A stretch of DNA of 64,000 nucleotides from assembly GCA_015233115.1 (NCBI GenBank), contig JADFYJ010000003.1:40536-104535 (forward strand). The letters run 5' to 3'. Under the pieces are notes generated by a model, which saw only the letters and a list, made by a program, of their open reading frames with translations, did no database searches and was not told where the DNA came from. Origin of the DNA: Candidatus Omnitrophota bacterium (GTDB taxonomy: Bacteria > Omnitrophota > Gorgyraeia > Zapsychrales > Zapsychraceae). Positions 2,866 to 16,022 of this stretch are shown one piece after another (position 1 is the first letter of the stretch; each line of letters begins with the position of its first letter). The position numbers and the translations under genes were made by a program.

Positions 2866-3017
2866 AACTAAACCAAAGAGCGCAATCAGCGGTTGAATAT
2901 ATGTTGTTATATTCGATTGTTTTGGCTTTGGTGCTGGTGAGTTTTAAATATTTTATGGATAAGACCCGTTCCCACACAGAAACCTATAGTAATAGTATTA
3001 GAAAAGACCTCAAATAA
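2862..3017 (+). CDS. Small (51 aa) hydrophobic protein with a Flp-pilin/class-III-signal-like N-terminus (AVEYMLLYSIVLALVLV)
   Basis: Its ATG overlaps the rpe stop (ATGA). It has a single TM helix. The E-Y motif is followed by a hydrophobic stretch as in Flp-type pilins. It is absent from the ORF track because it is under 60 aa. Confidence 0.3.
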   Translation: MKLNQRAQSAVEYMLLYSIVLALVLVSFKYFMDKTRSHTETYSNSIRKDLK

Positions 3018-3029
3018 TTGTAATGCTTT

Positions 3030-3956
3030 TCAAATCCTCCGGTCACGCACGTAATTACTCTTATCAAAAGTTTTGGCGTATTTTTTTAAGTCAGCGCCTA
3101 ATTCGGCGATTTGCGCGACGTGGGTAATCGGTTGGTATTTATTGCTCACCACAGCGATGGAAATGGCTAAGAGACTGAATTGCTGATATTCGCCTTGCCG
3201 GTTTTTGGCAATAATAAAACCGCTGCCTCGGTCATCGTCTGTATAAAAGCCAGGGACTAAAGCATCGAAATCTTTAATAATACCTTCGCAAATCTTATCC
3301 GTTGGTTCATCCGCCGCCACGAACACAAAATCATCGCCGCCGATATGACCGACAAACGTGTTGAGGCCGCCGATTTCCCTGACATTTTTGATGATGGTAC
3401 GCGCCGTGGCTTTAATAACTTCATCGCCTTTTTCAAAACCATATTTGTCGTTGTAAGCTTTAAATTTGTCTAAATCCGCATAACCAACGGCAAAAGTAAT
3501 TTTCTTGTCAATGTTGGCTTGAAGTTCTTCCATGATCGACGTGTTTCCGGGAAGATGTGTTAATGGGTTCGCGTCTAAGCTGCGGACTGTCCGGCGCAAG
3601 ATCATTTGAATTTTAGCTATGAGAATGTCGGGAGCAAAAGGTTTAACCAAATAATCATCGGCCCCAGCTTGAATGCCTTTGATTTGGTCTTGAGCTTCGC
3701 CTTTGCCGGTCAGCATAATAACCGGAATGTGCTGAAGTAAAATATCTTTTTTCATCTCTTTGCAAAAATCAATGCCGTTCATGACGGGCATCATATAATC
3801 ACAAACGACCAGGTCCGGTAATTTTTGTTGAACCATTTTTAAACCTTCAAGCCCATTAGGGGCCTGAAAAACATCATAATTTTCCGAGAGAGTCAGTTCC
3901 AAGACATCTAGAATGTCGGGATCGTCGTCTATAGTAACTATTTTTTCGCGTTTCAT
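3030..3956 (-). CDS. Response regulator with receiver domain plus GGDEF-type diguanylate cyclase domain (GGDDF variant)
   Basis: Receiver domain: DDDPD...VVCDYMMP...LTGKG. GGDEF-domain signatures: LTHLPGN, ADLDKFKAYNDKYG, IGGDDFVFV. Confidence 0.85.
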   Translation of the reverse strand: MKREKIVTIDDDPDILDVLELTLSENYDVFQAPNGLEGLKMVQQKLPDLVVCDYMMPVMNGIDFCKEMKKDILLQHIPVIMLTGKGEAQDQIKGIQAGADDYLVKPFAPDILIAKIQMILRRTVRSLDANPLTHLPGNTSIMEELQANIDKKITFAVGYADLDKFKAYNDKYGFEKGDEVIKATARTIIKNVREIGGLNTFVGHIGGDDFVFVAADEPTDKICEGIIKDFDALVPGFYTDDDRGSGFIIAKNRQGEYQQFSLLAISIAVVSNKYQPITHVAQIAELGADLKKYAKTFDKSNYVRDRRI

Positions 3957-6682: not shown

Positions 6683-6866
6683 TTTTCCCCCTTTATTTAA
6701 GCAATAATATATTAATTTTATAGATGGGTTTCAAGAGTGTCAATAGGAATAACATTAATATTGACGAGAAAACAAAATATGTTATTATTGATGCGGTTTA
6801 AATTTGGGACACAAAACTTAATTCGATAAAAATAGTTTGAATTAAGTATTATGTCCCTTGTTTCCT

Positions 6867-6940
6867 GGCCCCATCGTCTAGCCTGGTTAGGACGGAAGAT
6901 TCTCAGTCTTTAAACACGGGTCCGAATCCCGTTGGGGCTA
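6867..6940 (+). tRNA. tRNA-Glu (anticodon CUC as folded by eye); integration target of the downstream element
   Basis: Acceptor stem GGCCCCA/TGGGGCT with discriminator A. D-arm GTCT..GGAC. Anticodon stem GAAGA/TCTTT with loop TTCTCAG. T-arm ACGGG-TCCGAAT-CCCGT. No CCA is encoded. Confidence 0.75.
6892..6940 (+). repeat. attL core: 49-bp 3' portion of tRNA-Glu, directly repeated at 15974-16022
   Basis: ACGGAAGATTCTCAGTCTTTAAACACGGGTCCGAATCCCGTTGGGGCTA is identical at both sites. Confidence 0.85.
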
Positions 6941-7041
6941 TTTGTACAATTTGTCGACGGAAATCGTACTAAACACACGGTTTCCGTTTTTTGGTCTATT
7001 TCCTGATTTTTCCCCTGTTTTTCCTGCTTTTACCATAGCTT

Positions 7042-7064
7042 GGGTTACAATTTGGGTTACAAAA
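7042..7064 (+). promoter_or_regulatory. Putative recombinase arm-type binding repeat (GGGTTACAA x2), left copy; right copy at 15924-15946
   Basis: GGGTTACAATTTGGGTTACAAAA lies ~100 nt inside attL. GGATTACAATTTGGGTTACAAAT lies ~30 nt inside attR. Confidence 0.4.
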
Positions 7065-7480
7065 TTTTTAAGCCTTCAAGGTTATTTCTTGAGGGCTTTT
7101 TTGTTTAATACCGCTTTTTTTGACCTCTGGGTTTGGCGGAATATAAATCAAACTTGGAACGATACGGCTCGTGTTGTGCCTTTCCGAACCACCGAAAACA
7201 AACGTCTTTGGGTGAGACAGCTAAGCTGTTCAAGAATCCTGAACGGTGCGAGGGAAGAAATAACTAAGAAAGAGTTTTGACCAACCAACCTGCATACATC
7301 TGGTCAACACTTAACTTAGTGTTTAGATATATTCATACAAGCAGAAAAGAACAGTCTGCAGGGAGGGGTGAACTATGTCGCTAGCGCTCAGAAAAGCCTA
7401 TGCACAATTCAATAAACGTGTTGGGGGTCAAATTAACTATAAAGGAAATCTAGTTCCATTCAAACCAAAGGAGCCTAAAA

Positions 7481-8095
7481 ATGAAAAACATCGGAATCTA
7501 CGCCCGCGTAAGCACCGGAGATCAAACCTCGGAGCAACAATTAGCCGTATTAAGGAGTTATTGCGAGAACGCGGGGCATAAAATTGCAGATGAATATATT
7601 GACGAAGGAGAAAGCGCGTTAAAGCAGAATCGGCCTCAATATTTACGATTATTAGATGATGCCCGAAAACGAAAAATAGACACGATTCTGGTTTATAAAT
7701 TGGATAGGTTTAGCAGAAGCTTAAAGGAGCTGGTTAATACGATTAGTACGATTAAAGGCTATGGGGTTAATTTTATCAGCTACACAGAAAAAGATTTTGA
7801 TACAACAACCGCAACCGGCCAGCTTATGTTTCATATTGTCTCTGCCTTTGCCCAATTTGAACGGGATATGATTTCAGAAAGAACAAAACTCAAACTCGCT
7901 TATTTAAAAAGCAAGGGCGTTAAACTTGGCCGTCCTCGTAAGGTTGAATATGATAAGGTTTTTGCTTTAAGGGCCAGAGGGCTGTCCTTGAGCCAAATAG
8001 GAAAAGAATTCAGCTGTGGTAGGGCAACAATATGTAAGGCGTTAAAAAAACGTATTTTTGATGAAAAGAAACAGACCGTGGCGGTGGTGGGGTAG
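7481..8095 (+). CDS. Small serine recombinase (resolvase/invertase family)
   Basis: N-terminus IGIYARVSTGDQTSEQQ contains the catalytic Ser. The C-terminus has an HTH. SD AAAGGAG. Confidence 0.85.
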   Translation: MKNIGIYARVSTGDQTSEQQLAVLRSYCENAGHKIADEYIDEGESALKQNRPQYLRLLDDARKRKIDTILVYKLDRFSRSLKELVNTISTIKGYGVNFISYTEKDFDTTTATGQLMFHIVSAFAQFERDMISERTKLKLAYLKSKGVKLGRPRKVEYDKVFALRARGLSLSQIGKEFSCGRATICKALKKRIFDEKKQTVAVVG

Positions 8096-8144
8096 TTTTT
8101 TATGTGTTTAGCCGCAAGAATGTGAAGAAAGGAAACCCATTAGG

Positions 8145-8504
8145 ATGGATGATCGTGATTTAAAGGGACGGTTTAAAAAAGGGAGCAACGCTAATCCTAA
8201 AGGAAACAACCAATTCACCTCGATTGTTCCAATGATAGAAGCTTTAGATAAAGTTGGAAAACAAAAAAAAGAGGATTTTTGGGTGATGGTAGCTCGAAAA
8301 GCTTGGGTATCGGATACTGTTTTAGTGCATATTTTGAAAAAGATACTACCAGATCGGAAAGAATTGGCTTATGACGAGAAAGATAATGGATTTAACCGTT
8401 TAGTCAGAAGCGTTTCTGAGATCTCAACTGAAGAATTAAGCGCCATAACTGAAATGTTACGAAATAGCGTTCAGAAAGGTGATCAGAACCAGATCAGGGA
8501 TTAA
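8145..8504 (+). CDS. Hypothetical protein with a phage-associated N-terminal motif (GRFKKGSNANPKG, DUF5681-like)
   Basis: ORF inside the island. No recognisable catalytic motif. Confidence 0.4.
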   Translation: MDDRDLKGRFKKGSNANPKGNNQFTSIVPMIEALDKVGKQKKEDFWVMVARKAWVSDTVLVHILKKILPDRKELAYDEKDNGFNRLVRSVSEISTEELSAITEMLRNSVQKGDQNQIRD

Positions 8505-8598
8505 CAATTGTATTTTTGGAAAAATTAAAATATAATGCATACAGTTTCGTGTGACGCAAGAATATGTTATACTAATTGTAAATTAGGGGGAGAAGTTT

Positions 8599-9255
8599 AT
8601 GGAAATTGAAAATAAATTTTGTAATATTGTTGTATTAGGTAATTTTAATCCTGCCATTCTTACGCACGAATTTTTGGTTGATATCTGTAAAATTGATTTA
8701 GAAAAGCCTATTAATTTGCAATTAACGCCAATACATTCTCAGATAAAATATCAAAAAAATAATATTTCATTTCTAACATCTTTAGATAGGTTTGAAATAA
8801 GCGAATTAAAACCAGAGGTTTTTGAAAATTCTATTATTCCGAAATGCGCAAATTCATATTTGAATGTGTTGAAATATACACCTATGGTTCTTTGTGGTGT
8901 CAATTTTCAGATTGATGCAAAAAATGTTGATTTGGTAAATTTACAGAACAGCTTTGTTAAACAAGGGATTGAGTTAAAAAAATTTTTAAAAGCCAAAAAT
9001 GTGACCAATAGGCATTCAATTGATATTGATGAAGCAAATAAAGAACAATATGTGGGATATGACGTTAAGTTTACGTTGCGGGATGGTATTTCCGGGAATA
9101 TAAGAGTAAAAGTGCTTGGTGAAAAAAATATAAATTTAAACTATAATTTTGAAGTTAGTTTAGAAAACAAAGATAATTTGAAATTGATCCTAGCTGATTA
9201 TTACCAAAGGGCAGTAGAATTTAAAGATTTTATTAATCATTTTATTAAAGGCTAA
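8599..9255 (+). CDS. Hypothetical protein, cargo operon gene 1 (218 aa, no recognised domain)
   Basis: SD GGGGGAG lies upstream. AT-rich. Its stop sits 1 nt before the next gene's start. Confidence 0.5.
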   Translation: MEIENKFCNIVVLGNFNPAILTHEFLVDICKIDLEKPINLQLTPIHSQIKYQKNNISFLTSLDRFEISELKPEVFENSIIPKCANSYLNVLKYTPMVLCGVNFQIDAKNVDLVNLQNSFVKQGIELKKFLKAKNVTNRHSIDIDEANKEQYVGYDVKFTLRDGISGNIRVKVLGEKNINLNYNFEVSLENKDNLKLILADYYQRAVEFKDFINHFIKG

Positions 9256-9256
9256 A

Positions 9257-9949
9257 ATGAATTCTCTTCAAGAATTATCAAGAGTTGCTACAATAACGAA
9301 TTTAAGATTTACAACGCCTAATACGGATGCTTGTAATGAAGCCTTTAAGGTAAAACTTGAAAAGAGAGATGCTCTTTTGTATACGCAATGGACAAGATTG
9401 TTCGGACAAAGCCCTGTTGAGCTAAGAGATTCAAGTGATATAAAGTATGTTGTTAGCGTCGAGAATGATGATATTATGACGACAACTTTAATCAGCGATT
9501 CGTTTTATGTTTACAGTCAAAATTGGCGGCAAAGTACAAATGGTGCAGATTTTGGCGAAATATTCGCTTATGAAAAAGATGACAGCTGCGATGAGATAGA
9601 ACAAATTTATTTTAGTTTAAATTCATCTTTAAATTTGAAGCCAGCTGCCATCGGCGAAGAGATAGAAGACGCGGTTTTTGATTTCTGTAAAAAAGAAAAT
9701 TTATTACAAGAATTTTATGCGTTTGATTGTTTTATTAAAAAATGTTTCATAAATATAATAAATATCAATGTCAAGGCAAAGCCAGATCCGGAAATAAAAA
9801 ATAAAAATCAAGTGATAGTTGAAGTGTTTATTAAGGATTCTATTCGCGGGATTATTGATATGCAAAATAATTTTTTTGAGTTGGTTTTTAAGGAATTTAA
9901 TGGCTCTATTTTCGATAAATTCGTTTTAAAGTGTGAAAAATATGGATGA
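9257..9949 (+). CDS. Hypothetical protein, cargo operon gene 2 (230 aa, acidic, no recognised domain)
   Basis: Translationally coupled to gene 1 (TAAaATG). It overlaps gene 3. Confidence 0.5.
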   Translation: MNSLQELSRVATITNLRFTTPNTDACNEAFKVKLEKRDALLYTQWTRLFGQSPVELRDSSDIKYVVSVENDDIMTTTLISDSFYVYSQNWRQSTNGADFGEIFAYEKDDSCDEIEQIYFSLNSSLNLKPAAIGEEIEDAVFDFCKKENLLQEFYAFDCFIKKCFINIININVKAKPDPEIKNKNQVIVEVFIKDSIRGIIDMQNNFFELVFKEFNGSIFDKFVLKCEKYG

Positions 9950-10346
9950 GATTAATTTTTTGAATTTGGCTAAAGAACTTGATGAACGGCCTCCGGTGAC
10001 CGAAGAAAAAATTCGAACAGCTGTTAGTCGGGCGTATTATTATTTATTTTTAAAAATAAGAGCTTCCTTAGAGTCTGTAGGGTTAAAGTTCAAAAGGGCT
10101 GCCGAAGATCACGACGAAGTAAAAAATATGCTTTTAAAAACTGATATTACTGAAGCTCGAGCAGTTGGACTTTCTTTAGAAGAATTAAGAAGAAAAAGAA
10201 ATGATGCTGATTATGAAATGGAAATAGGAGGGTTTGGATTTGGATCAAACTCTGCTACTTTGGCAATTGCACAAGCGGAGAATGCAGCAGAACAATTTAA
10301 TCGCATAAATCGGAATTGTCTTAAAGAGAAAATTCGCGTAAATTAA
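9942..10346 (+). CDS. HEPN-like alpha-helical protein, cargo operon gene 3
   Basis: VSRAYYYLFL and LRRKRNDADYE resemble the HEPN Rx4-6H region, but Y sits in place of H. The ATG at 9942 overlaps the stop of gene 2. The track offers an alternative GTG at 9933. Confidence 0.4.
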   Translation: MDEINFLNLAKELDERPPVTEEKIRTAVSRAYYYLFLKIRASLESVGLKFKRAAEDHDEVKNMLLKTDITEARAVGLSLEELRRKRNDADYEMEIGGFGFGSNSATLAIAQAENAAEQFNRINRNCLKEKIRVN

Positions 10347-10377
10347 TTTTTAAAAATTATTTATACGCGCGCTTTGT

Positions 10378-10710
10378 TTATTTTCGATGTTCACAAATAT
10401 TTTTATAAATGCTAAGCAGTAGGTGGGCATCTTTGAAATTGTGTTTATTGAGAAGTCTTTTTAATTCTTGAGTAGATTTTGTCGTATCCTCGCTGCTTAT
10501 TACCTCCTCAAATAATTCATTTATTCTTACCTCTAAAGTCTCTGCTATTCGGGTGATGGTGTCTAGGGAAGGTTGTTTAATCCCTCGTTCGATTAATCCG
10601 ATATAGTTGTCGCTCGCTTCAATTTTCTCAGCTAATTGTGATTGAGTTAATCCCGCTTGTTCTCGAAAGAAACGAATCCGTTTGCCTAACATCCGGTAAG
10701 GTTTTTCCAT
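10378..10710 (-). CDS. XRE-family helix-turn-helix transcriptional regulator
   Basis: HTH_3 signature LTQSQLAEKIEASDNYIGLIERGIKQPSLDTITRIA. Divergent from the downstream cargo gene. Confidence 0.8.
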   Translation of the reverse strand: MEKPYRMLGKRIRFFREQAGLTQSQLAEKIEASDNYIGLIERGIKQPSLDTITRIAETLEVRINELFEEVISSEDTTKSTQELKRLLNKHNFKDAHLLLSIYKNICEHRK

Positions 10711-10883
10711 AGTAAACCTCCTTGCCAGATATGATATTCAAAAAAATTATTAAGACCACATACCATAAGTATGTTTTTTGCTGGAAAAAACTATCCATAA
10801 GTTATATTATTGTTAAAATTGGATAAATTTTTCCAATGTAAAGCGACAAAAAATAGAATTGGGTCTTAATAGAGGTTAGGAGT

Positions 10884-11837
10884 ATGCAAAAAAATATTGG
10901 TAAAATTTTAAAAGTTCCTTTACGCAATCTTTGGAAAAAAGAAGATAAGGATTTTACTAAATGGATGGAAGAAAATATTGATTATTTGAATGACATTTTG
11001 GATTTTGAAATTTCAATTGAATCGAGCGAAGAAAATGTTGGCCCCTTCCGCGTAGATCTTTACGGTGAAGATGGTTTTGGGCGAAAAGTTATTATTGAAA
11101 ATCAACTTGAAAAAAGCGACCACGATCATCTCGGTAAACTTTTGACATATTTAATCAATCTTGAAGCTAAAATTGCAATCTGGATTTCTAGCGATCCCGT
11201 TGAGGAGCACTCTGCTGTCATAGATTGGTTAAATGAAGTTGCCCCGGATGATATGCTTTTTTATTTAATTAAGATTGAGGCCATTGAAATAGAAGGGCAG
11301 TCTATGGCTGCCCCACTATTTACAATTGTTAAAGGGCCAACAGCTGAGGCTAAACAGTTGGGAAGTGAGAGGAAAGAATTTGCACAACGTCATATTGTAC
11401 GAAAGCAATTTTGGGAGCAACTTTTAGAGAGAAGTAAGAATAAAACAAAGTTGTTTTCCAATATTTCTCCGAGTATGGATCATTGGTTGTCTACGGGTAT
11501 TGGAAAATCCGGCATTGCATTGAGTTATTTGATTACAAATAAGTACGCTGGTTGTGATCTTTATTTTTCGAGAGGAAGGAATAAGGCAGACGATGAAAAT
11601 GTAAATAAAATTTGGTTTGATGAATTATACAAAAATAAGGATCGGATTGAAAAAGAATTTGGCGCGCCGTTGGATTGGCAGCGATTAAATGATAAATGGG
11701 CTTCAAGGATCGCGTGTCATTACCAAGGCTTGACTTTGCAAGATGAGAAAAATTGGCCTATGATTCAAGATAAATTGATTGAAACAGCAATTCGTATGGA
11801 AAAAGTCTTTGCGCCGTTTATAAAGCAATTGGAGTAA
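10884..11837 (+). CDS. PD-(D/E)xK nuclease-like protein (DUF4268-like pattern)
   Basis: The motif VDLYGED...VIIENQLEKSDHDHLGKLLTY fits D...E-x-K plus the conserved IENQLE.tDHDHLG block. Assigned from memory of the family. Confidence 0.4.
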   Translation: MQKNIGKILKVPLRNLWKKEDKDFTKWMEENIDYLNDILDFEISIESSEENVGPFRVDLYGEDGFGRKVIIENQLEKSDHDHLGKLLTYLINLEAKIAIWISSDPVEEHSAVIDWLNEVAPDDMLFYLIKIEAIEIEGQSMAAPLFTIVKGPTAEAKQLGSERKEFAQRHIVRKQFWEQLLERSKNKTKLFSNISPSMDHWLSTGIGKSGIALSYLITNKYAGCDLYFSRGRNKADDENVNKIWFDELYKNKDRIEKEFGAPLDWQRLNDKWASRIACHYQGLTLQDEKNWPMIQDKLIETAIRMEKVFAPFIKQLE

Positions 11838-11838
11838 A

Positions 11839-12744
11839 ATGAAAAAAATAGTTATTGGTCTTATATTATTTTTGTGCTTTCAAATAGCTATTGTTAAGGC
11901 AGAACCCAATATTTCCATCCCCGAAGATATTTTCAAAGCCTTGGATAATCTCAAAGACGACAATTTGCAATTGAACTGTACGGAAGCCGCCCTTTATCTT
12001 TATGATCGAAGAGAAAAAATTGTTGATATTTTAATAAATGTATTACCGAAACTTGATTGGCAAGGCCAAGATGTCATATTAAAAATACTTACTGAGACCG
12101 AAACCTATAGTCCGAATGAATATATTATAAAACTTATGCTTGAGCGGATTAAAGATGAAAGGAGTCCAAATATACGTAACGCTCACGACATTTATCATTA
12201 TGACTATATTCCTTACATTAGAAAATATGCGAAGCAGTTTAAGGACGAGCTTAGGACATATATAAAGATTGGAAATATTAGACAGCTCTGGGTTGTGACG
12301 CACATACTAGTCAAAGAAAATATTTTTGATGAAATAAGCGATGCTTATAGTCCTAAGTTGATGAATTTTGTAATCAAAAATTTGCGGGATGATAATATCG
12401 ATATGAATGCATCTTATTCGGCAAGAATTTGTTTTTTAATCGGTAAAAATAGTCTTCCGTACCTAAAACAAGAAGTGAAAGATGGCGACGCTCAATCCAA
12501 GGAAATAGCAAAGACTTTAGTCAGATATATTTCTGAAAATCGCCGTTTTAATCCGGATGATTTATGGGAATTTGTTGATGAGCTAAGTGTCTCGGGTGTT
12601 ACATTAGGAAGCACGTATTTAGACAGAATTGAGCGAGAAGGGGCCAGCAAATTGCCGGATTTTTGGTTTGGGTCAAATGTATCTAAACAGCCTAAATTTT
12701 TAATAAGTGGAAAATATACAAACAGACAGCAAATGAGCGAGTAA
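11839..12744 (+). CDS. Secreted hypothetical protein (signal peptide)
   Basis: N-terminus MKKIVIGLILFLCFQIAIVKA. Confidence 0.5.
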   Translation: MKKIVIGLILFLCFQIAIVKAEPNISIPEDIFKALDNLKDDNLQLNCTEAALYLYDRREKIVDILINVLPKLDWQGQDVILKILTETETYSPNEYIIKLMLERIKDERSPNIRNAHDIYHYDYIPYIRKYAKQFKDELRTYIKIGNIRQLWVVTHILVKENIFDEISDAYSPKLMNFVIKNLRDDNIDMNASYSARICFLIGKNSLPYLKQEVKDGDAQSKEIAKTLVRYISENRRFNPDDLWEFVDELSVSGVTLGSTYLDRIEREGASKLPDFWFGSNVSKQPKFLISGKYTNRQQMSE

Positions 12745-12750
12745 TTAAGA

Positions 12751-13431
12751 ATGAAAAGGATATTGATATTTATCATTTTTTTATTTGTTTCAAGCGTATC
12801 TGCCGCACAAGAACTATCGTCTGTAGAAAAGATTAAATTTCAAGAAAAGAAGGGAAGCTGTGAAGTCACTGGGGAGTATCCGCAATTTAAGATCCTAAAA
12901 ATTTCTGCCAACAAACTTAAAAATGTAAATAAAGAGATAAATGTGTTTGCTCGAAGTCTTTTTATAAAGTTTTTAACAAAAGATGCCATCGGACAACAAA
13001 TCAAAGAAGATTTCAAGACAAGCAGTAATGGGAATACGTTTGATATTGATTTTAATGTAATAAGGGCAGATACAAGGTACGTTAGCGTAATTTTTCAAAC
13101 TTATTTTATGCAAGAAAACGCACCTCACGGCGTTGGACATTTTTATGCGTTTAATTATGATGTCGAACATTCAAAAATTATTCATTTAAGTGATCTTTTT
13201 AAGCCGGGTACTGACTATTTAAAACAACTTCGGGGTTTTTGTAATCGCGATCTTGAAAAACAATTAGGGAACGGGTTTTATGATAAGGACGCTGTAAATG
13301 ATAGTACACAATTTACTTTTGACCAAGAAAGTTTAATTATTCATTTTAGTGCTTATGAAGTTGCTTGCTATGCTGCTGGTATGCCAGAAGTCAAAATTTC
13401 ATTTAAGAAGCTGATAGGGCTTAAAGAATGA
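12751..13431 (+). CDS. Secreted protein, DUF3298/DUF4163 (RsiV C-terminal-like) family guess
   Basis: Signal peptide. The ...APHGVGHFYAFNYDV...IHLSDLF pattern resembles DUF3298. Confidence 0.4.
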   Translation: MKRILIFIIFLFVSSVSAAQELSSVEKIKFQEKKGSCEVTGEYPQFKILKISANKLKNVNKEINVFARSLFIKFLTKDAIGQQIKEDFKTSSNGNTFDIDFNVIRADTRYVSVIFQTYFMQENAPHGVGHFYAFNYDVEHSKIIHLSDLFKPGTDYLKQLRGFCNRDLEKQLGNGFYDKDAVNDSTQFTFDQESLIIHFSAYEVACYAAGMPEVKISFKKLIGLKE

Positions 13432-13604
13432 GAATTTGTGGCTGTTAAAAAAAGGGTATCAAAAAGTCCTGTATGAAATTAGCCGATTTATGGCTGTTTC
13501 CAAAACGAACGTTTTTTAAACATTTGGAGAGAATGTTGGTAGAGGTGAGGACGGGCTCAATTATAGCGGTGTGTTATAACGGATGACAGTATAAACAATA
13601 ATAG

Positions 13605-14048
13605 ATGCGAGGTGAAGAAATGAAAATCATTGTCATTGCTTTATTGTCAGTATTTTTAATTGGCTGTTCGGCTGCATATTGGAATCAGGTAGCGGAAAAT
13701 ATGCGGAACAACCCGTATCATCCTCCTCAATATCAATCTCCCCAACAAAATAATCAGCCGTCTATGATTGACCAGTATCATCAAATGCAACAACAAACGT
13801 ATCAAAATCAATATCAACAACAACAGTTACAATTACAGCAACAGCAAATGCAGTTACAGCAACTACAAATACAAGCTCAACAGCGACAGCAGCAGCAACA
13901 AATTGGTCAATATTTAATGCAGCCTTTGTCCCAATATCATCCGTTAAATGTCCCCAATAACGTACCAGAACAGTCGGGAAGGGTAACAACACATTGTACT
14001 TCAGCATCGATAAACGGGGGAGGAGGAATGGATTGTACCTCTTATTAA
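13605..14048 (+). CDS. Gln-rich lipoprotein
   Basis: Lipobox LIGC. Long poly-Q/L region. The true start may be the ATG at 13620 (MKIIV). Confidence 0.5.
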   Translation: MRGEEMKIIVIALLSVFLIGCSAAYWNQVAENMRNNPYHPPQYQSPQQNNQPSMIDQYHQMQQQTYQNQYQQQQLQLQQQQMQLQQLQIQAQQRQQQQQIGQYLMQPLSQYHPLNVPNNVPEQSGRVTTHCTSASINGGGGMDCTSY

Positions 14049-14149
14049 TTAACAAACAAAATTAATCAGTCGTATCAGTTATTTCGGGAAAAGCTCTTCC
14101 GCTTCATTAATTTTAGAAAATATTTTTTTGTTTATGAGACATAAAGAAA

Positions 14150-14641
14150 TTAGGATGGCTTTCGGCTGTCCTTTATTGCTTCTGTAAGTCCTAAATCTTC
14201 ACAATGATTTTTTAAAACCTCTTCGCCCTCTTTGGTTAAATCCAATAAAATTTGTTTATTTTTAGTGTTTGGCATTAAAGATATTTGCGCTTTCAAGTTT
14301 TTAAATATTGAAAGGGCTTGAATAAGACTTGAATACATTGGCAGATTCAAAATCTGTTTCGACAAAGATTTTTTAACATCTTTTAGATCAAAAGGGAAAG
14401 ACCAATTGACGTAGGGGGCTGTTTCTTTGTCATCTAAGACATTAGCAAGGCTAATTGCAATAGGGTAAGATGGCTTTTGTTTGGAGGCTTCTAACCTAGA
14501 AAGATAGCCTTCTGTTATACCGACTTGTTTTGCGACTTCGAGCAAGGATAGGCCTTTATCCATACGAATTTTCCTAATTCTTTGGCCCATCGTTTTGACA
14601 TCTTTTGGATAATCTGATTTTCTCATACGTTTATAATCCAC
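14150..14641 (-). CDS. CI-like XRE-family repressor of the element
   Basis: N-terminal HTH LSLLEVAKQVGITEGYLSRLE plus a C-terminal domain. Divergent from xis-int and shares an operator region with it. Confidence 0.7.
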   Translation of the reverse strand: MDYKRMRKSDYPKDVKTMGQRIRKIRMDKGLSLLEVAKQVGITEGYLSRLEASKQKPSYPIAISLANVLDDKETAPYVNWSFPFDLKDVKKSLSKQILNLPMYSSLIQALSIFKNLKAQISLMPNTKNKQILLDLTKEGEEVLKNHCEDLGLTEAIKDSRKPS

Positions 14642-14642
14642 A

Positions 14643-14718
14643 TTTCTTACCTACTTGTCAAGAAAATAGTTTACAAAAGGGAAATATTGGGGTATAATCT
14701 TACTTGTTAGGTAAGAAA
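14643..14718. promoter_or_regulatory. Divergent switch region: 11-bp inverted repeat TTTCTTACCTA / TAGGTAAGAAA flanking a sigma70-like promoter (TTTACA-17-TATAAT with TG extension) driving xis-int
   Basis: -35 at 14670-14675 and -10 at 14693-14698 with a 17-bp spacer. The inverted-repeat arms are at 14643-14653 and 14708-14718. Confidence 0.45.
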
Positions 14719-14739
14719 CAATAAAAAAGGAGTGTCAAA

Positions 14740-14919
14740 ATGGGTGATTTTATGACGGTTCAAGAAATAGCGGCTAAAGTTAGGAAGGCGACAAAAACAA
14801 TTTATCATTACGTCGAAACTGAAGTAATTCCGGCGAATTTAATTATCCGAGTTGGCAACTCAATTCGTATGCGACCTTCGGATTTTGAAAAGTGGATTGA
14901 AGGACAGCGAGGCAGATAA
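14740..14919 (+). CDS. xis: Excisionase / AlpA-like small DNA-binding protein (HTH_17)
   Basis: 59 aa. MTVQEIAAKVRKATKTIYHYVE fits a MerR-type HTH. SD AAAAAGGAG. Immediately upstream of the integrase. Under 60 aa, so not in the track. Confidence 0.6.
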   Translation: MGDFMTVQEIAAKVRKATKTIYHYVETEVIPANLIIRVGNSIRMRPSDFEKWIEGQRGR

Positions 14920-14920
14920 A

Positions 14921-15919
14921 GTGGCGCATTTTCGTAAAAGAGATAATGGGTTTTACTATGCTTATTGGAAAGAAAAACGTTCTAATGGGTTATGGTACAC
15001 AATGGCTAAAGCATTAAAGACTAAAAATAAATTTGTTGCTCAAAAACGGTTTAATAATTTATTCGCCGAAGATTTGGGAGAAGTTAAAGAGTGTTATGTT
15101 GAAGATTGGGTAGAGCTTTTAAAGCGAAGCTTGGGTACAGAAGACTTAGATTCCAAAACTACAACCAAATATATTTTTCACGCCGAACGATTTATTGGTT
15201 TTTTTAATGGTAGGGTCAGGAAAATGAGCGATTTTAGACACGAACACATTATTGAGTTCATAAATAATTTAAATCAGTCCAATTATTCAAAGAGCACGGT
15301 TGCCGGTTACGGGCGAAGTTTACGAAAAATGTTTAACATTGCTTTGGACTTAGAATATGTCCGCAAGAGTCCAATGAAGAGGTTTAAAGTAGGCAAAATG
15401 GAACAAAGACAAAGATTCTTTAATCCATCGGAGATAATTAAGATACTAGAAGTTGCTAAGGAAGATCAATTTCAATACGCACTTGTTTTGTACTCATTAC
15501 AGACGGGTTTTCGAATTGAAGAGGTTGTGGATTCCTTCTGGGAAAACATTAACCATACAAACAGAACGATTACAGTGATAGGAAAAGGAAAAAAATCCCG
15601 GCGTCAAAAGATTCCGGCGTTAGCATACGAAGCTATAATGAAATTGAATGGTAAATGGCCTACGCTTTTTGGTAAGCAACAAAAGCAGTTGTATCGCGAT
15701 GTAAAGGTTGTTTTAGCAAAAGCTGACGTAAAAGGGTCGCCGCACGTCTTTCGGGACTCCTATGCTACATATTCGATTAAAATAATGCCTTTAAGCACGT
15801 TACGGGAGAGGATGGGGCATAGTAGCTTGCTTCAGACCGATAAATATACGCACGCATTAAATTCGGAAGTTGACCCAGAAGTAATGAAATATTTTGAAGA
15901 TTGGCAAATTCAGAGGTAA
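14921..15919 (+). CDS. int: Tyrosine recombinase / phage integrase
   Basis: C-terminal catalytic residues ...R...HVFRDSYAT...GHSSLLQTDKYTH carry the R, H-x-x-R and Y. The GTG start is coupled to the xis stop. The track's ATG at 14852 would overlap xis by 68 nt. Confidence 0.8.
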   Translation: MAHFRKRDNGFYYAYWKEKRSNGLWYTMAKALKTKNKFVAQKRFNNLFAEDLGEVKECYVEDWVELLKRSLGTEDLDSKTTTKYIFHAERFIGFFNGRVRKMSDFRHEHIIEFINNLNQSNYSKSTVAGYGRSLRKMFNIALDLEYVRKSPMKRFKVGKMEQRQRFFNPSEIIKILEVAKEDQFQYALVLYSLQTGFRIEEVVDSFWENINHTNRTITVIGKGKKSRRQKIPALAYEAIMKLNGKWPTLFGKQQKQLYRDVKVVLAKADVKGSPHVFRDSYATYSIKIMPLSTLRERMGHSSLLQTDKYTHALNSEVDPEVMKYFEDWQIQR

Positions 15920-15973
15920 TTATGGATTACAATTTGGGTTACAAATGGCTAGTTTTAGGTGAAAATAGTATGA

Positions 15974-16022
15974 ACGGAAGATTCTCAGTCTTTAAACACG
16001 GGTCCGAATCCCGTTGGGGCTA
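15974..16022 (+). repeat. attR core: 49-bp copy of the tRNA-Glu 3' end
   Basis: Identical to 6892-6940. Confidence 0.85.

Follow-up and report, generated by a model that had tools for sequence, protein, structure and literature searches.

A three-gene operon ending in a HEPN-type gene on an Omnitrophota integrative island: a candidate tripartite toxin-antitoxin-like module with exchangeable effectors

What do three genes do that are packed end to end on a small mobile island, recur together in distant bacteria and are each annotated as 'hypothetical protein'? The question is raised by positions 8599-10346 of the stretch of DNA analysed here (the window: 64,000 nucleotides from Candidatus Omnitrophota bacterium, assembly GCA_015233115.1, contig JADFYJ010000003.1, positions 40,536 to 104,535 of the forward strand), where GenBank loci HQL26_02235, 02240 and 02245 form an operon whose genes will be called A, B and C. 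The answer favoured in the following, with an even chance of being right, is that A-B-C is a tripartite toxin-antitoxin-like conflict module of a widespread and unannotated family, carried here as cargo of an integrative island.

8599..9255, forward strand: gene A, 218 residues, ATG start, with the Shine-Dalgarno sequence GGGGGAG upstream
9257..9949, forward strand: gene B, 230 residues, acidic, isoelectric point (pI) 4.65
9942..10346, forward strand: gene C, 134 residues counted from its ATG

On direct reading of the sequence, A and B meet in TAA-A-ATG, which leaves a gap of 1 nucleotide, and B and C in ATGGATGA, an overlap of 8 nucleotides. Both the tight packing and the translational coupling of a three-gene unit, as claimed in an earlier reading made from the letters alone (the sequence-only reading), are therefore borne out. 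C could also start from a GTG at 9933; homologues nonetheless align from the ATG. The AT-richness that had been judged by eye is also real, the G+C fraction (GC) being 0.305 in the operon and 0.418 in the part of the window that lies beyond the island; among 266 segments of equal length from that part there is not one so low (mean 0.417, s.d. 0.019, minimum 0.368), and the low-GC block spans about 8 to 16 kb of the window.

Evidence for the answer comes from the recurrence of the triad, together with the exchange of its last gene. A word-indexed protein search gave three homologues for A and a single one for C, with none for B; that of C is P0007, a Nitrospira protein with a Pfam HEPN domain. 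On the Nitrospira contigs a 216-residue homologue of A is followed by a 177-residue gene, the C-terminal half of which matches window B, and then by P0007, all three genes overlapping. Pattern scans for loci with an A homologue returned 19 from GTDB species genomes and 44 from JGI metagenomes, in groups that include Nitrospinota, Planctomycetota, Chloroflexota, Syntrophales, Rhodothermales, Bryobacterales and Vicinamibacterales. Counting non-redundant loci in which A is intact and followed by no less than 900 nucleotides, 42 in all, A, B and C lie on the same strand with both junctions at 15 nucleotides or less in 39 cases (median gaps -1 and 0 nucleotides); in the other three B is present and the third open reading frame (ORF) is displaced or decayed. 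The flanks of the related loci (150 ORFs) hold housekeeping genes, insertion sequence (IS) elements and a few defence-like genes, with no constant neighbour, and A-B-C is therefore a unit in its own right. Thus, the trio is not a peculiarity of the genome in which it was first noticed, and one of the outcomes by which the sequence-only reading was to be refuted, that the genes are never found together elsewhere, does not apply.

By BLAST clustering, the proteins encoded in the C position fall into five classes, namely PIN domains (12 loci; PF01850, E 4e-10), HEPN proteins (9, including the window), a retropepsin-like aspartyl protease with a DTGA motif (4), a family of about 145 residues with an invariant Arg plus two His (11; L022-L027, L048, L050, L054, L018) and a family of about 200 residues with an invariant Cys-Asp, LLSNTCD (10; L001, L015, L017, L028, L049, L032, L035, L042, L066, L067). 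The last two have no Pfam match and their profiles returned nothing from the Protein Data Bank (PDB); they are candidate new toxin families. These classes are polyphyletic on a neighbour-joining tree of A. Indeed, the A protein of locus L038 is 61% identical to A proteins of PIN-type systems and yet is followed by a HEPN protein, and that of L062, closest to A proteins of HEPN-type systems, is yet paired with a PIN protein. The replacement of the third gene by PIN and other effector types in relatives strengthens the suspicion, voiced in the sequence-only reading, that the operon is a toxin or defence system. Two variants of the layout were seen besides. In two Rhodothermales metagenome-assembled genomes (MAGs), A is split in L021 (4941-5588; 127 residues plus a 70-residue ORF) and intact in the syntenic L022 (4941-5588), as if the module were decaying in one of the lineages. 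On the Acinetobacter schindleri plasmid p5AsACE (L073, 2222-3378), a HEPN protein of the SR(A/S)YY...R-x3-D-Y type follows a 258-residue tetratricopeptide repeat protein after a gap of 2 nucleotides; there is no A-like gene, and this may be a two-gene variant with another partner.

Gene B is the predicted link between the constant first gene and the exchangeable last one. Searches of Pfam, NCBIfam, PADLOC and PHROG give no family for the window protein, in keeping with the earlier statement that the first two products could not be assigned, and its profile found nothing in the PDB. The B proteins of related loci have a median pI of 4.8, with 91% of them acidic (below 7), opposite to the PIN and HEPN proteins encoded after them, the pI of which is about 9. 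The B classes co-vary with the C classes in BLAST clustering. In particular, the C-terminal 90 or so residues of window B (about residues 131-230, with a 'DPEI' motif) are common only to the B proteins of HEPN-type systems, being homologous to those of L005, L060, L061 and L038, and a 'DPE' strand-loop-strand motif is found in this domain of all HEPN-type B proteins. The B protein of L038 is chimeric, matching PIN-type B proteins over residues 52-131 (E 5e-7) and the C-terminal domain of HEPN-type ones over residues 141-191 (E 6e-6; profile E 1.5e-8). The B protein paired with the retropepsin-like protease ends in a DUF5678-like segment (22.1 bits versus a gathering score of 23.2). Taken together, co-variation and chimera indicate that B is modular, its C-terminal part tracking the effector and the remainder tracking A.

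The identity of window C was less immediately evident, as the protein itself scores below the Pfam gathering score for HEPN (PF05168, 14.9 bits, E 0.031; gathering score 22), matches the PADLOC model HEPN_IX at E 0.0012 over 47 residues, and is similar to phrog_5176, of unknown function, at E 4.8e-16; despite the latter, a tblastn search of C against phages gave no match. Support comes through its relatives. The C proteins of L005 (33% identical) and L009 score above the gathering score (28.1 and 23.5 bits, respectively), and a profile of five family members finds 9xbd_A and 9xbc_A in the PDB at E 3e-6 (3.3e-6 for the former), both entered as 'HEPN domain-containing protein' and both with the SRAYY...RNxxDY pattern of the family, the 9xbc chain having Phe at the Tyr position. 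The segments SRAYYYLF and LRRKRNDADYE, on which the sequence-only reading had based its proposal of a degenerate HEPN protein, are present in C, and the proposal is supported. Invariant among the five members are R25, S29-R30-A31-Y32-Y33, H57, R86, D90 and Y91. The canonical Rx4-6H motif is missing from C, as the segment R86-N-D-A-D90-Y91 has no His at x4-6, and the invariant H57 stands N-terminal to this R-x3-D-Y motif. HEPN-T proteins of this kind normally pair with MNT nucleotidyltransferases. Anantharaman et al. (PMC3710099) describe just such a variant among HEPN-T/PF05168 proteins of the AF0298 type: Asp takes the place of His, and further towards the N-terminus, in the helix 2-3 insert, there is another strongly conserved His, as part of a proposed alternative active site. 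On homology, C reads as a HEPN-T-type protein of the AF0298-like variant with a predicted four-helix, up-and-down HEPN fold, and catalysis by C is plausible.

Gene A is the constant component. Of the 835 clusters (50% identity) that an exhaustive profile search finds at E<=1e-3, 162 remain at E<=1e-10 and 59 at E<=1e-30; with few exceptions the members are about 215 residues long, and the A proteins of the related loci all reach 75-221 bits with the profile of the family. None of Pfam, NCBIfam, PADLOC and PHROG contains a match to window A, nor do 114 members of the family match Pfam, NCBIfam or the relevant PADLOC models: A is a genuine, sizeable and unannotated family. The N-terminal extensions of some homologues (P0048, P0043 and others) were considered as fusions and look like mis-called starts. 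AlphaFold2 (AF2), given a 4-sequence alignment, produced two confident models out of five, the best with a predicted local distance difference test (pLDDT) of 84.6 and a predicted template modelling score (pTM) of 0.82, in which A is predicted to consist of two tandem beta-alpha-beta4-alpha domains. Such a duplicated order is the TATA-binding-protein-like (TBP-like) topology of SCOP. A Foldseek search of the PDB with this model gives S-adenosylmethionine decarboxylase at E 8e-6, yet at a template modelling (TM) score of only 0.37, and the profile search of the PDB gives nothing, so no close solved relative of A was found there. In BFVD the model matches A0A515MGR4 (E 3e-10, TM 0.61/0.65, 12% identity), an unnamed viral protein of 202 residues that is the best structural match over the whole length. 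The conserved residues are G14, N17, P18, I20, F25, L26, Y87, L91, T94, P95, G100, N102, N183 and E185; none of them is basic, and the median pI of the family is 5.8, which argues against binding of nucleic acids and for binding of a protein or peptide. We infer that A is a protein- or peptide-binding component.

How the three proteins might work together can be outlined on this basis. C would be the effector or toxin, probably a ribonuclease that uses R86 and the separately conserved H57 in place of the canonical histidine. B would be an acidic, two-part adaptor and antitoxin, the C-terminal domain of which, specific to the type of C, keeps C inactive, and the N-terminal and middle part of which goes with A. 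A would most likely be a constant protein-binding sensor, scaffold or chaperone controlling B, and a trigger, be it infection or loss of the element, would release C via the control exerted by A on B. That C should be the toxin and B the antitoxin is supported indirectly by the co-variation of the two, the acidity of B and the presence of PIN or HEPN domains in the C position; the mobile context is that of the island with its attachment (att) repeats, its integrase and a PADLOC candidate defence gene (see below). Taken alone, the role of A as sensor or chaperone is less likely than not.

Several observations weigh against this interpretation. Window C is without the canonical catalytic histidine, is not basic (pI 5.96) and could be non-catalytic. 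The AF2 model of window B, computed from a single sequence, reaches a pLDDT of 34.5 and a pTM of 0.23 only. Autoregulation is typical of toxin-antitoxin (TA) systems of the second type (type II), and no DNA-binding domain can be recognised in either B or A, which leaves regulation in that style unexplained. At the sensitivity used, homologues of A are absent from PLSDB plasmids, INPHARED phages and IMG/VR. The neighbourhoods of related loci are mostly housekeeping, with some IS and defence-like genes. Finally, all contacts among A, B and C are inferred, as are the toxicity of C, its neutralisation by B and the trigger.

The same arrangement is found under a different first gene. A tblastn search of C against PLSDB led to an ORF without annotation on plasmid pTB1 of Thermus brockianus.

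NZ_CP016313.1, about 201170-201562 (2995-3387 of locus L072), complement strand: Thermus HEPN ORF, 130 residues, GTG start, no entry in the PLSDB gene table

The two genes that precede it on that strand encode, in this order, a TIGR04255 family protein (150.9 bits; the cut-off is 30) and a hypothetical protein of 147 residues. The second gene of pTB1 is similar to the B gene of L014 (30% identity, E 1.5e-10) and the third to its HEPN-type C gene (39% identity, E 2e-24); the A protein of L014 is a solid member of the A family at 151 bits. As B and C are homologous in the two loci and the first genes differ, one B-C cassette can follow either family. Two further plasmid-borne TIGR04255 genes, on Crinalium pCRI9333.03 and on Rhodococcus plasmids, head tight operons of two or three genes, and TIGR04255-led operons resemble A-B-C in beginning with a protein of about 250 residues, behind which one or two small genes are closely coupled. 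Unlike this layout, the sequences of A and TIGR04255 have no significant similarity. Membership of A in TIGR04255 was considered and rejected, as window A and 114 members of its family gave no hit at the 30-bit cut-off that the Thermus protein, serving as control, passes by far; the hhalign probability of the pair is 0.13%, hidden Markov model scores are at most 9 bits, and the weak matches are collinear. A profile search of the PDB with TIGR04255 and a search of the phage collection returned no match. A and TIGR04255 are equivalent in operon position and are not one family; possibly they are very distant relatives. The broader proposal that both together mark a large class of conflict systems with three components, so far without description and built of a constant two-domain alpha/beta sensor of a trigger, a modular acidic adaptor and exchangeable effectors (PIN, HEPN, retropepsin-like protease and the Cys-Asp and Arg/His families, the last two as new toxin families), is a possible one, with clearly less than an even chance. 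It would amount to a new sensor-adaptor-effector logic, distinct from that of SecB-type toxin-antitoxin-chaperone systems, and would give TIGR04255 its first function.

Among known systems, the toxin-antitoxin-chaperone (TAC) systems offer the nearest comparison. The TAC antitoxin is modular, one part being for the toxin and another for the accessory protein, and the chimeric B protein of L038 fits this logic. Furthermore, these systems are likewise tripartite, with one conserved accessory protein and varied toxin-antitoxin families (PMC9098466). Unlike the TAC accessory protein, A is not SecB-like; the SecB-type TAC is still the closest functional analogue of A-B-C. The HEPN-MNT (HepT/MntA, type VII) toxin-antitoxin systems (PMC7641770, PMC11586414) share a small stand-alone HEPN-T/PF05168 protein in last position with the presumed neutraliser before it. 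The differences are that B and its homologues match neither NTP_transf_2/Polbeta models in Pfam nor anything in the PDB, that no MNT gene is adjacent, that an extra conserved first gene is present here, and that R-x3-D-Y and a distal His stand in place of Rx4-6H. In the Panacea/PanA and NetFlax networks of hyperpromiscuous antitoxin domains (PMC8832971, PMC10440598), a conserved component is likewise joined with many unrelated toxin domains through cassette exchange. However, those systems are mostly of two genes and the conserved domain is itself the antitoxin, whereas here the conserved A is a separate third component and the toxin-specific part sits on the variable B.

The ingredients are therefore familiar (PIN and HEPN toxins, acidic antitoxins, accessory third components) and do not break with known principles. 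What is new is the A family, the A-B-C architecture, the two effector families and the link to TIGR04255, none of them annotated in the 2023-2026 libraries or found in the literature searched. Against the system models of PADLOC-DB v2.0.0, A and B have no hits and C has only HEPN_IX, and the literature searched (tripartite HEPN/PIN, TBP-like plus TA, DUF5678, TIGR04255, 9XBD) gave no description of an A-B-C module and no mention of the TIGR04255 family. Should the interpretation hold, the few toxin-antitoxin or abortive-infection architectures of three components would be joined by a widespread family, its 835 clusters being spread across Omnitrophota, Nitrospirota, Nitrospinota, Planctomycetota, Chloroflexota, Acidobacteriota, Rhodothermales, Syntrophales and others. 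It would provide a natural experiment in effector swapping, in which the L038 chimera maps the halves of B to their partners. The Cys-Asp and the Arg plus two His families would become candidate toxins, and TIGR04255, an orphan NCBIfam family, would be tied to the same logic. In terms of annotation, A, B and the Thermus HEPN ORF are now 'hypothetical' or missed, and a profile of A would flag such modules in MAGs.

The alternative that survives best keeps the tripartite TA architecture and changes its purpose: A-B-C would be an addiction module that stabilises the 9-kb element after excision, not a phage defence. To weigh it, the island itself must be considered.

6866..6941, forward strand: tRNA-Glu(CTC), the integration target (ARAGORN; Rfam 54.8 bits)
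6892-6940: attL, the 3' 49 nucleotides of tRNA-Glu, a direct repeat with 100% identity to attR
15974..16022, forward strand: attR, a perfect 49-nucleotide copy of the tRNA-Glu 3' end (repeat search, confirmed by script)
7481..8095, forward strand: serine recombinase of resolvase/invertase type, near attL (Pfam Resolvase E 9.5e-44, plus HTH_7)
14852..15919, forward strand: tyrosine integrase adjoining attR (Pfam Phage_integrase E 2.6e-14, plus SAM-like N-terminal domains)

The repeats attL and attR bound an island of 9.08 kb (window 6866-16022), and the genes are indeed cargo of an element with two recombinases, as had been proposed at the outset. The module lies between the two recombinases of this small excisable island, the att sites of which are intact; TA modules are known to stabilise genomic islands (for instance PMC8978831); and the related loci are scattered, often in housekeeping contexts with some IS elements, as expected of selfish TA cassettes. 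The presence of a PADLOC defence candidate on the same island and of defence-like genes next to some relatives speaks against an addiction role alone, although the two roles are not mutually exclusive. On balance, a purely addictive function is rather unlikely, if less so than the readings that follow.

A second alternative is suggested by the predicted fold of A. RnlA and LsoA, of the RnlAB and LsoAB antiphage systems, combine, in a single chain, two domains of TBP-like topology with a HEPN domain behind them and have a separate inhibitor protein (PMC8266594). A-B-C could be a split RnlA-like nuclease, with A as a subunit that binds nucleic acid (the substrate) and directs the nuclease C to it, and B as the inhibitor. 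Here, unlike in RnlA and LsoA, each part is a polypeptide of its own and the gene for B lies between those for A and C, the HEPN protein is of a different family, and A also pairs with effectors other than HEPN; moreover, no structural or sequence match of A to RnlA is found among the matches listed, and the acidic character of A, already mentioned, does not favour a substrate-binding subunit. This reading is unlikely.

A third possibility returns to the regulation that the tripartite TA interpretation leaves unexplained. In the regulator-antitoxin-toxin operons omega-epsilon-zeta and paaR-paaA-parE, the first gene represses the promoter, and A could be a transcriptional autoregulator of this kind. 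The gene order fits, with the regulator first, B has no recognisable DNA-binding domain, and a TBP-like fold is able to bind DNA. Nevertheless, A matches no helix-turn-helix (HTH), ribbon-helix-helix or AbrB family, is acidic in pI, lacks conserved basic residues and, at 215 residues, is far larger than known third-component repressors, all of which makes such a role quite unlikely.

Very unlikely, finally, is a non-catalytic HEPN protein binding nucleotides or RNA in an operon for regulatory or housekeeping RNA metabolism, as, although the Rx4-6H histidine is missing, the pI of window C is 5.96 and HEPN domains without the motif can be non-catalytic (PMC3710099), R86, D90, Y91 and H57 are invariant across the family and argue for a conserved site, the same slot is occupied by PIN and other effectors in relatives, and housekeeping agrees poorly with the low GC, the mobile island, the patchy spread over more than 8 phyla and the cassette swapping.

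The region immediately upstream of A contains, between the resolvase and A, a 119-residue ORF (8145-8504) with an N-terminal GRFKKGSNANPKGNN motif, which has no family match and no counterpart upstream of A in related loci. It is followed by a possible promoter.

8508..8536, forward strand: possible sigma-70-type promoter, TTGTAT, 17 nucleotides, TATAAT, 62 nucleotides upstream of gene A

This element is a consensus match only, the -35 hexamer agreeing at 3 of 6 positions, and was read by eye, being absent from the list of the automatic scan. The promoter and terminator scan of this AT-rich stretch did no better than on shuffled sequences (20 versus 14.9 +/- 3.5) and found no terminator downstream of C; tandem-repeat and Rfam searches returned no repeat or family pointing to an RNA antitoxin.

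Downstream of the operon are two genes that had been drawn into its interpretation.

10378..10710, reverse strand: XRE-family HTH gene (Pfam HTH_3 E 1.4e-13; PADLOC HTH_VI E 2e-18)
10884..11837, forward strand: PDC-S11 gene, a candidate phage defence gene of PADLOC (PDC-S11 E 1.8e-112), with a C-terminal DUF4268 domain (Pfam E 6.6e-33)

The XRE gene was proposed to be a local regulator of the three genes, which is doubtful. It stands tail-to-tail with C and head-to-head with PDC-S11, with which it has a divergent intergenic region in common; being convergent with the operon, it is more likely a regulator of PDC-S11 than of A-B-C, and it is probably not part of the module. The neighbour described as PD-(D/E)xK-like is better assigned to PDC-S11/DUF4268; of the nuclease likeness there remains a weak N-terminal NucS-like match (E 0.0029). 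The protein also matches phrog_27742 (E 8.5e-33). Together, XRE and PDC-S11 (10378-11837) form a second candidate defence unit on the island, the further cargo of which includes a second XRE gene.

Three consecutive cargo genes at 11839-14048 encode proteins with signal-peptide- or lipoprotein-like N-termini, which is odd for a small island. The products are a protein of 301 residues without assignment, a DUF3298/PdaC-like protein of 226 residues that resembles RsiV or an esterase, and a Gln-rich protein of 147 residues, the gene of which holds a 21-nucleotide tandem repeat at 13818-13874. Just inside both ends of the island (7040-7063 and 15918-15945), the motif TGGGTTACAA occurs twice in tandem, in copies that are 96% identical and could be arm-type binding sites of a recombinase.

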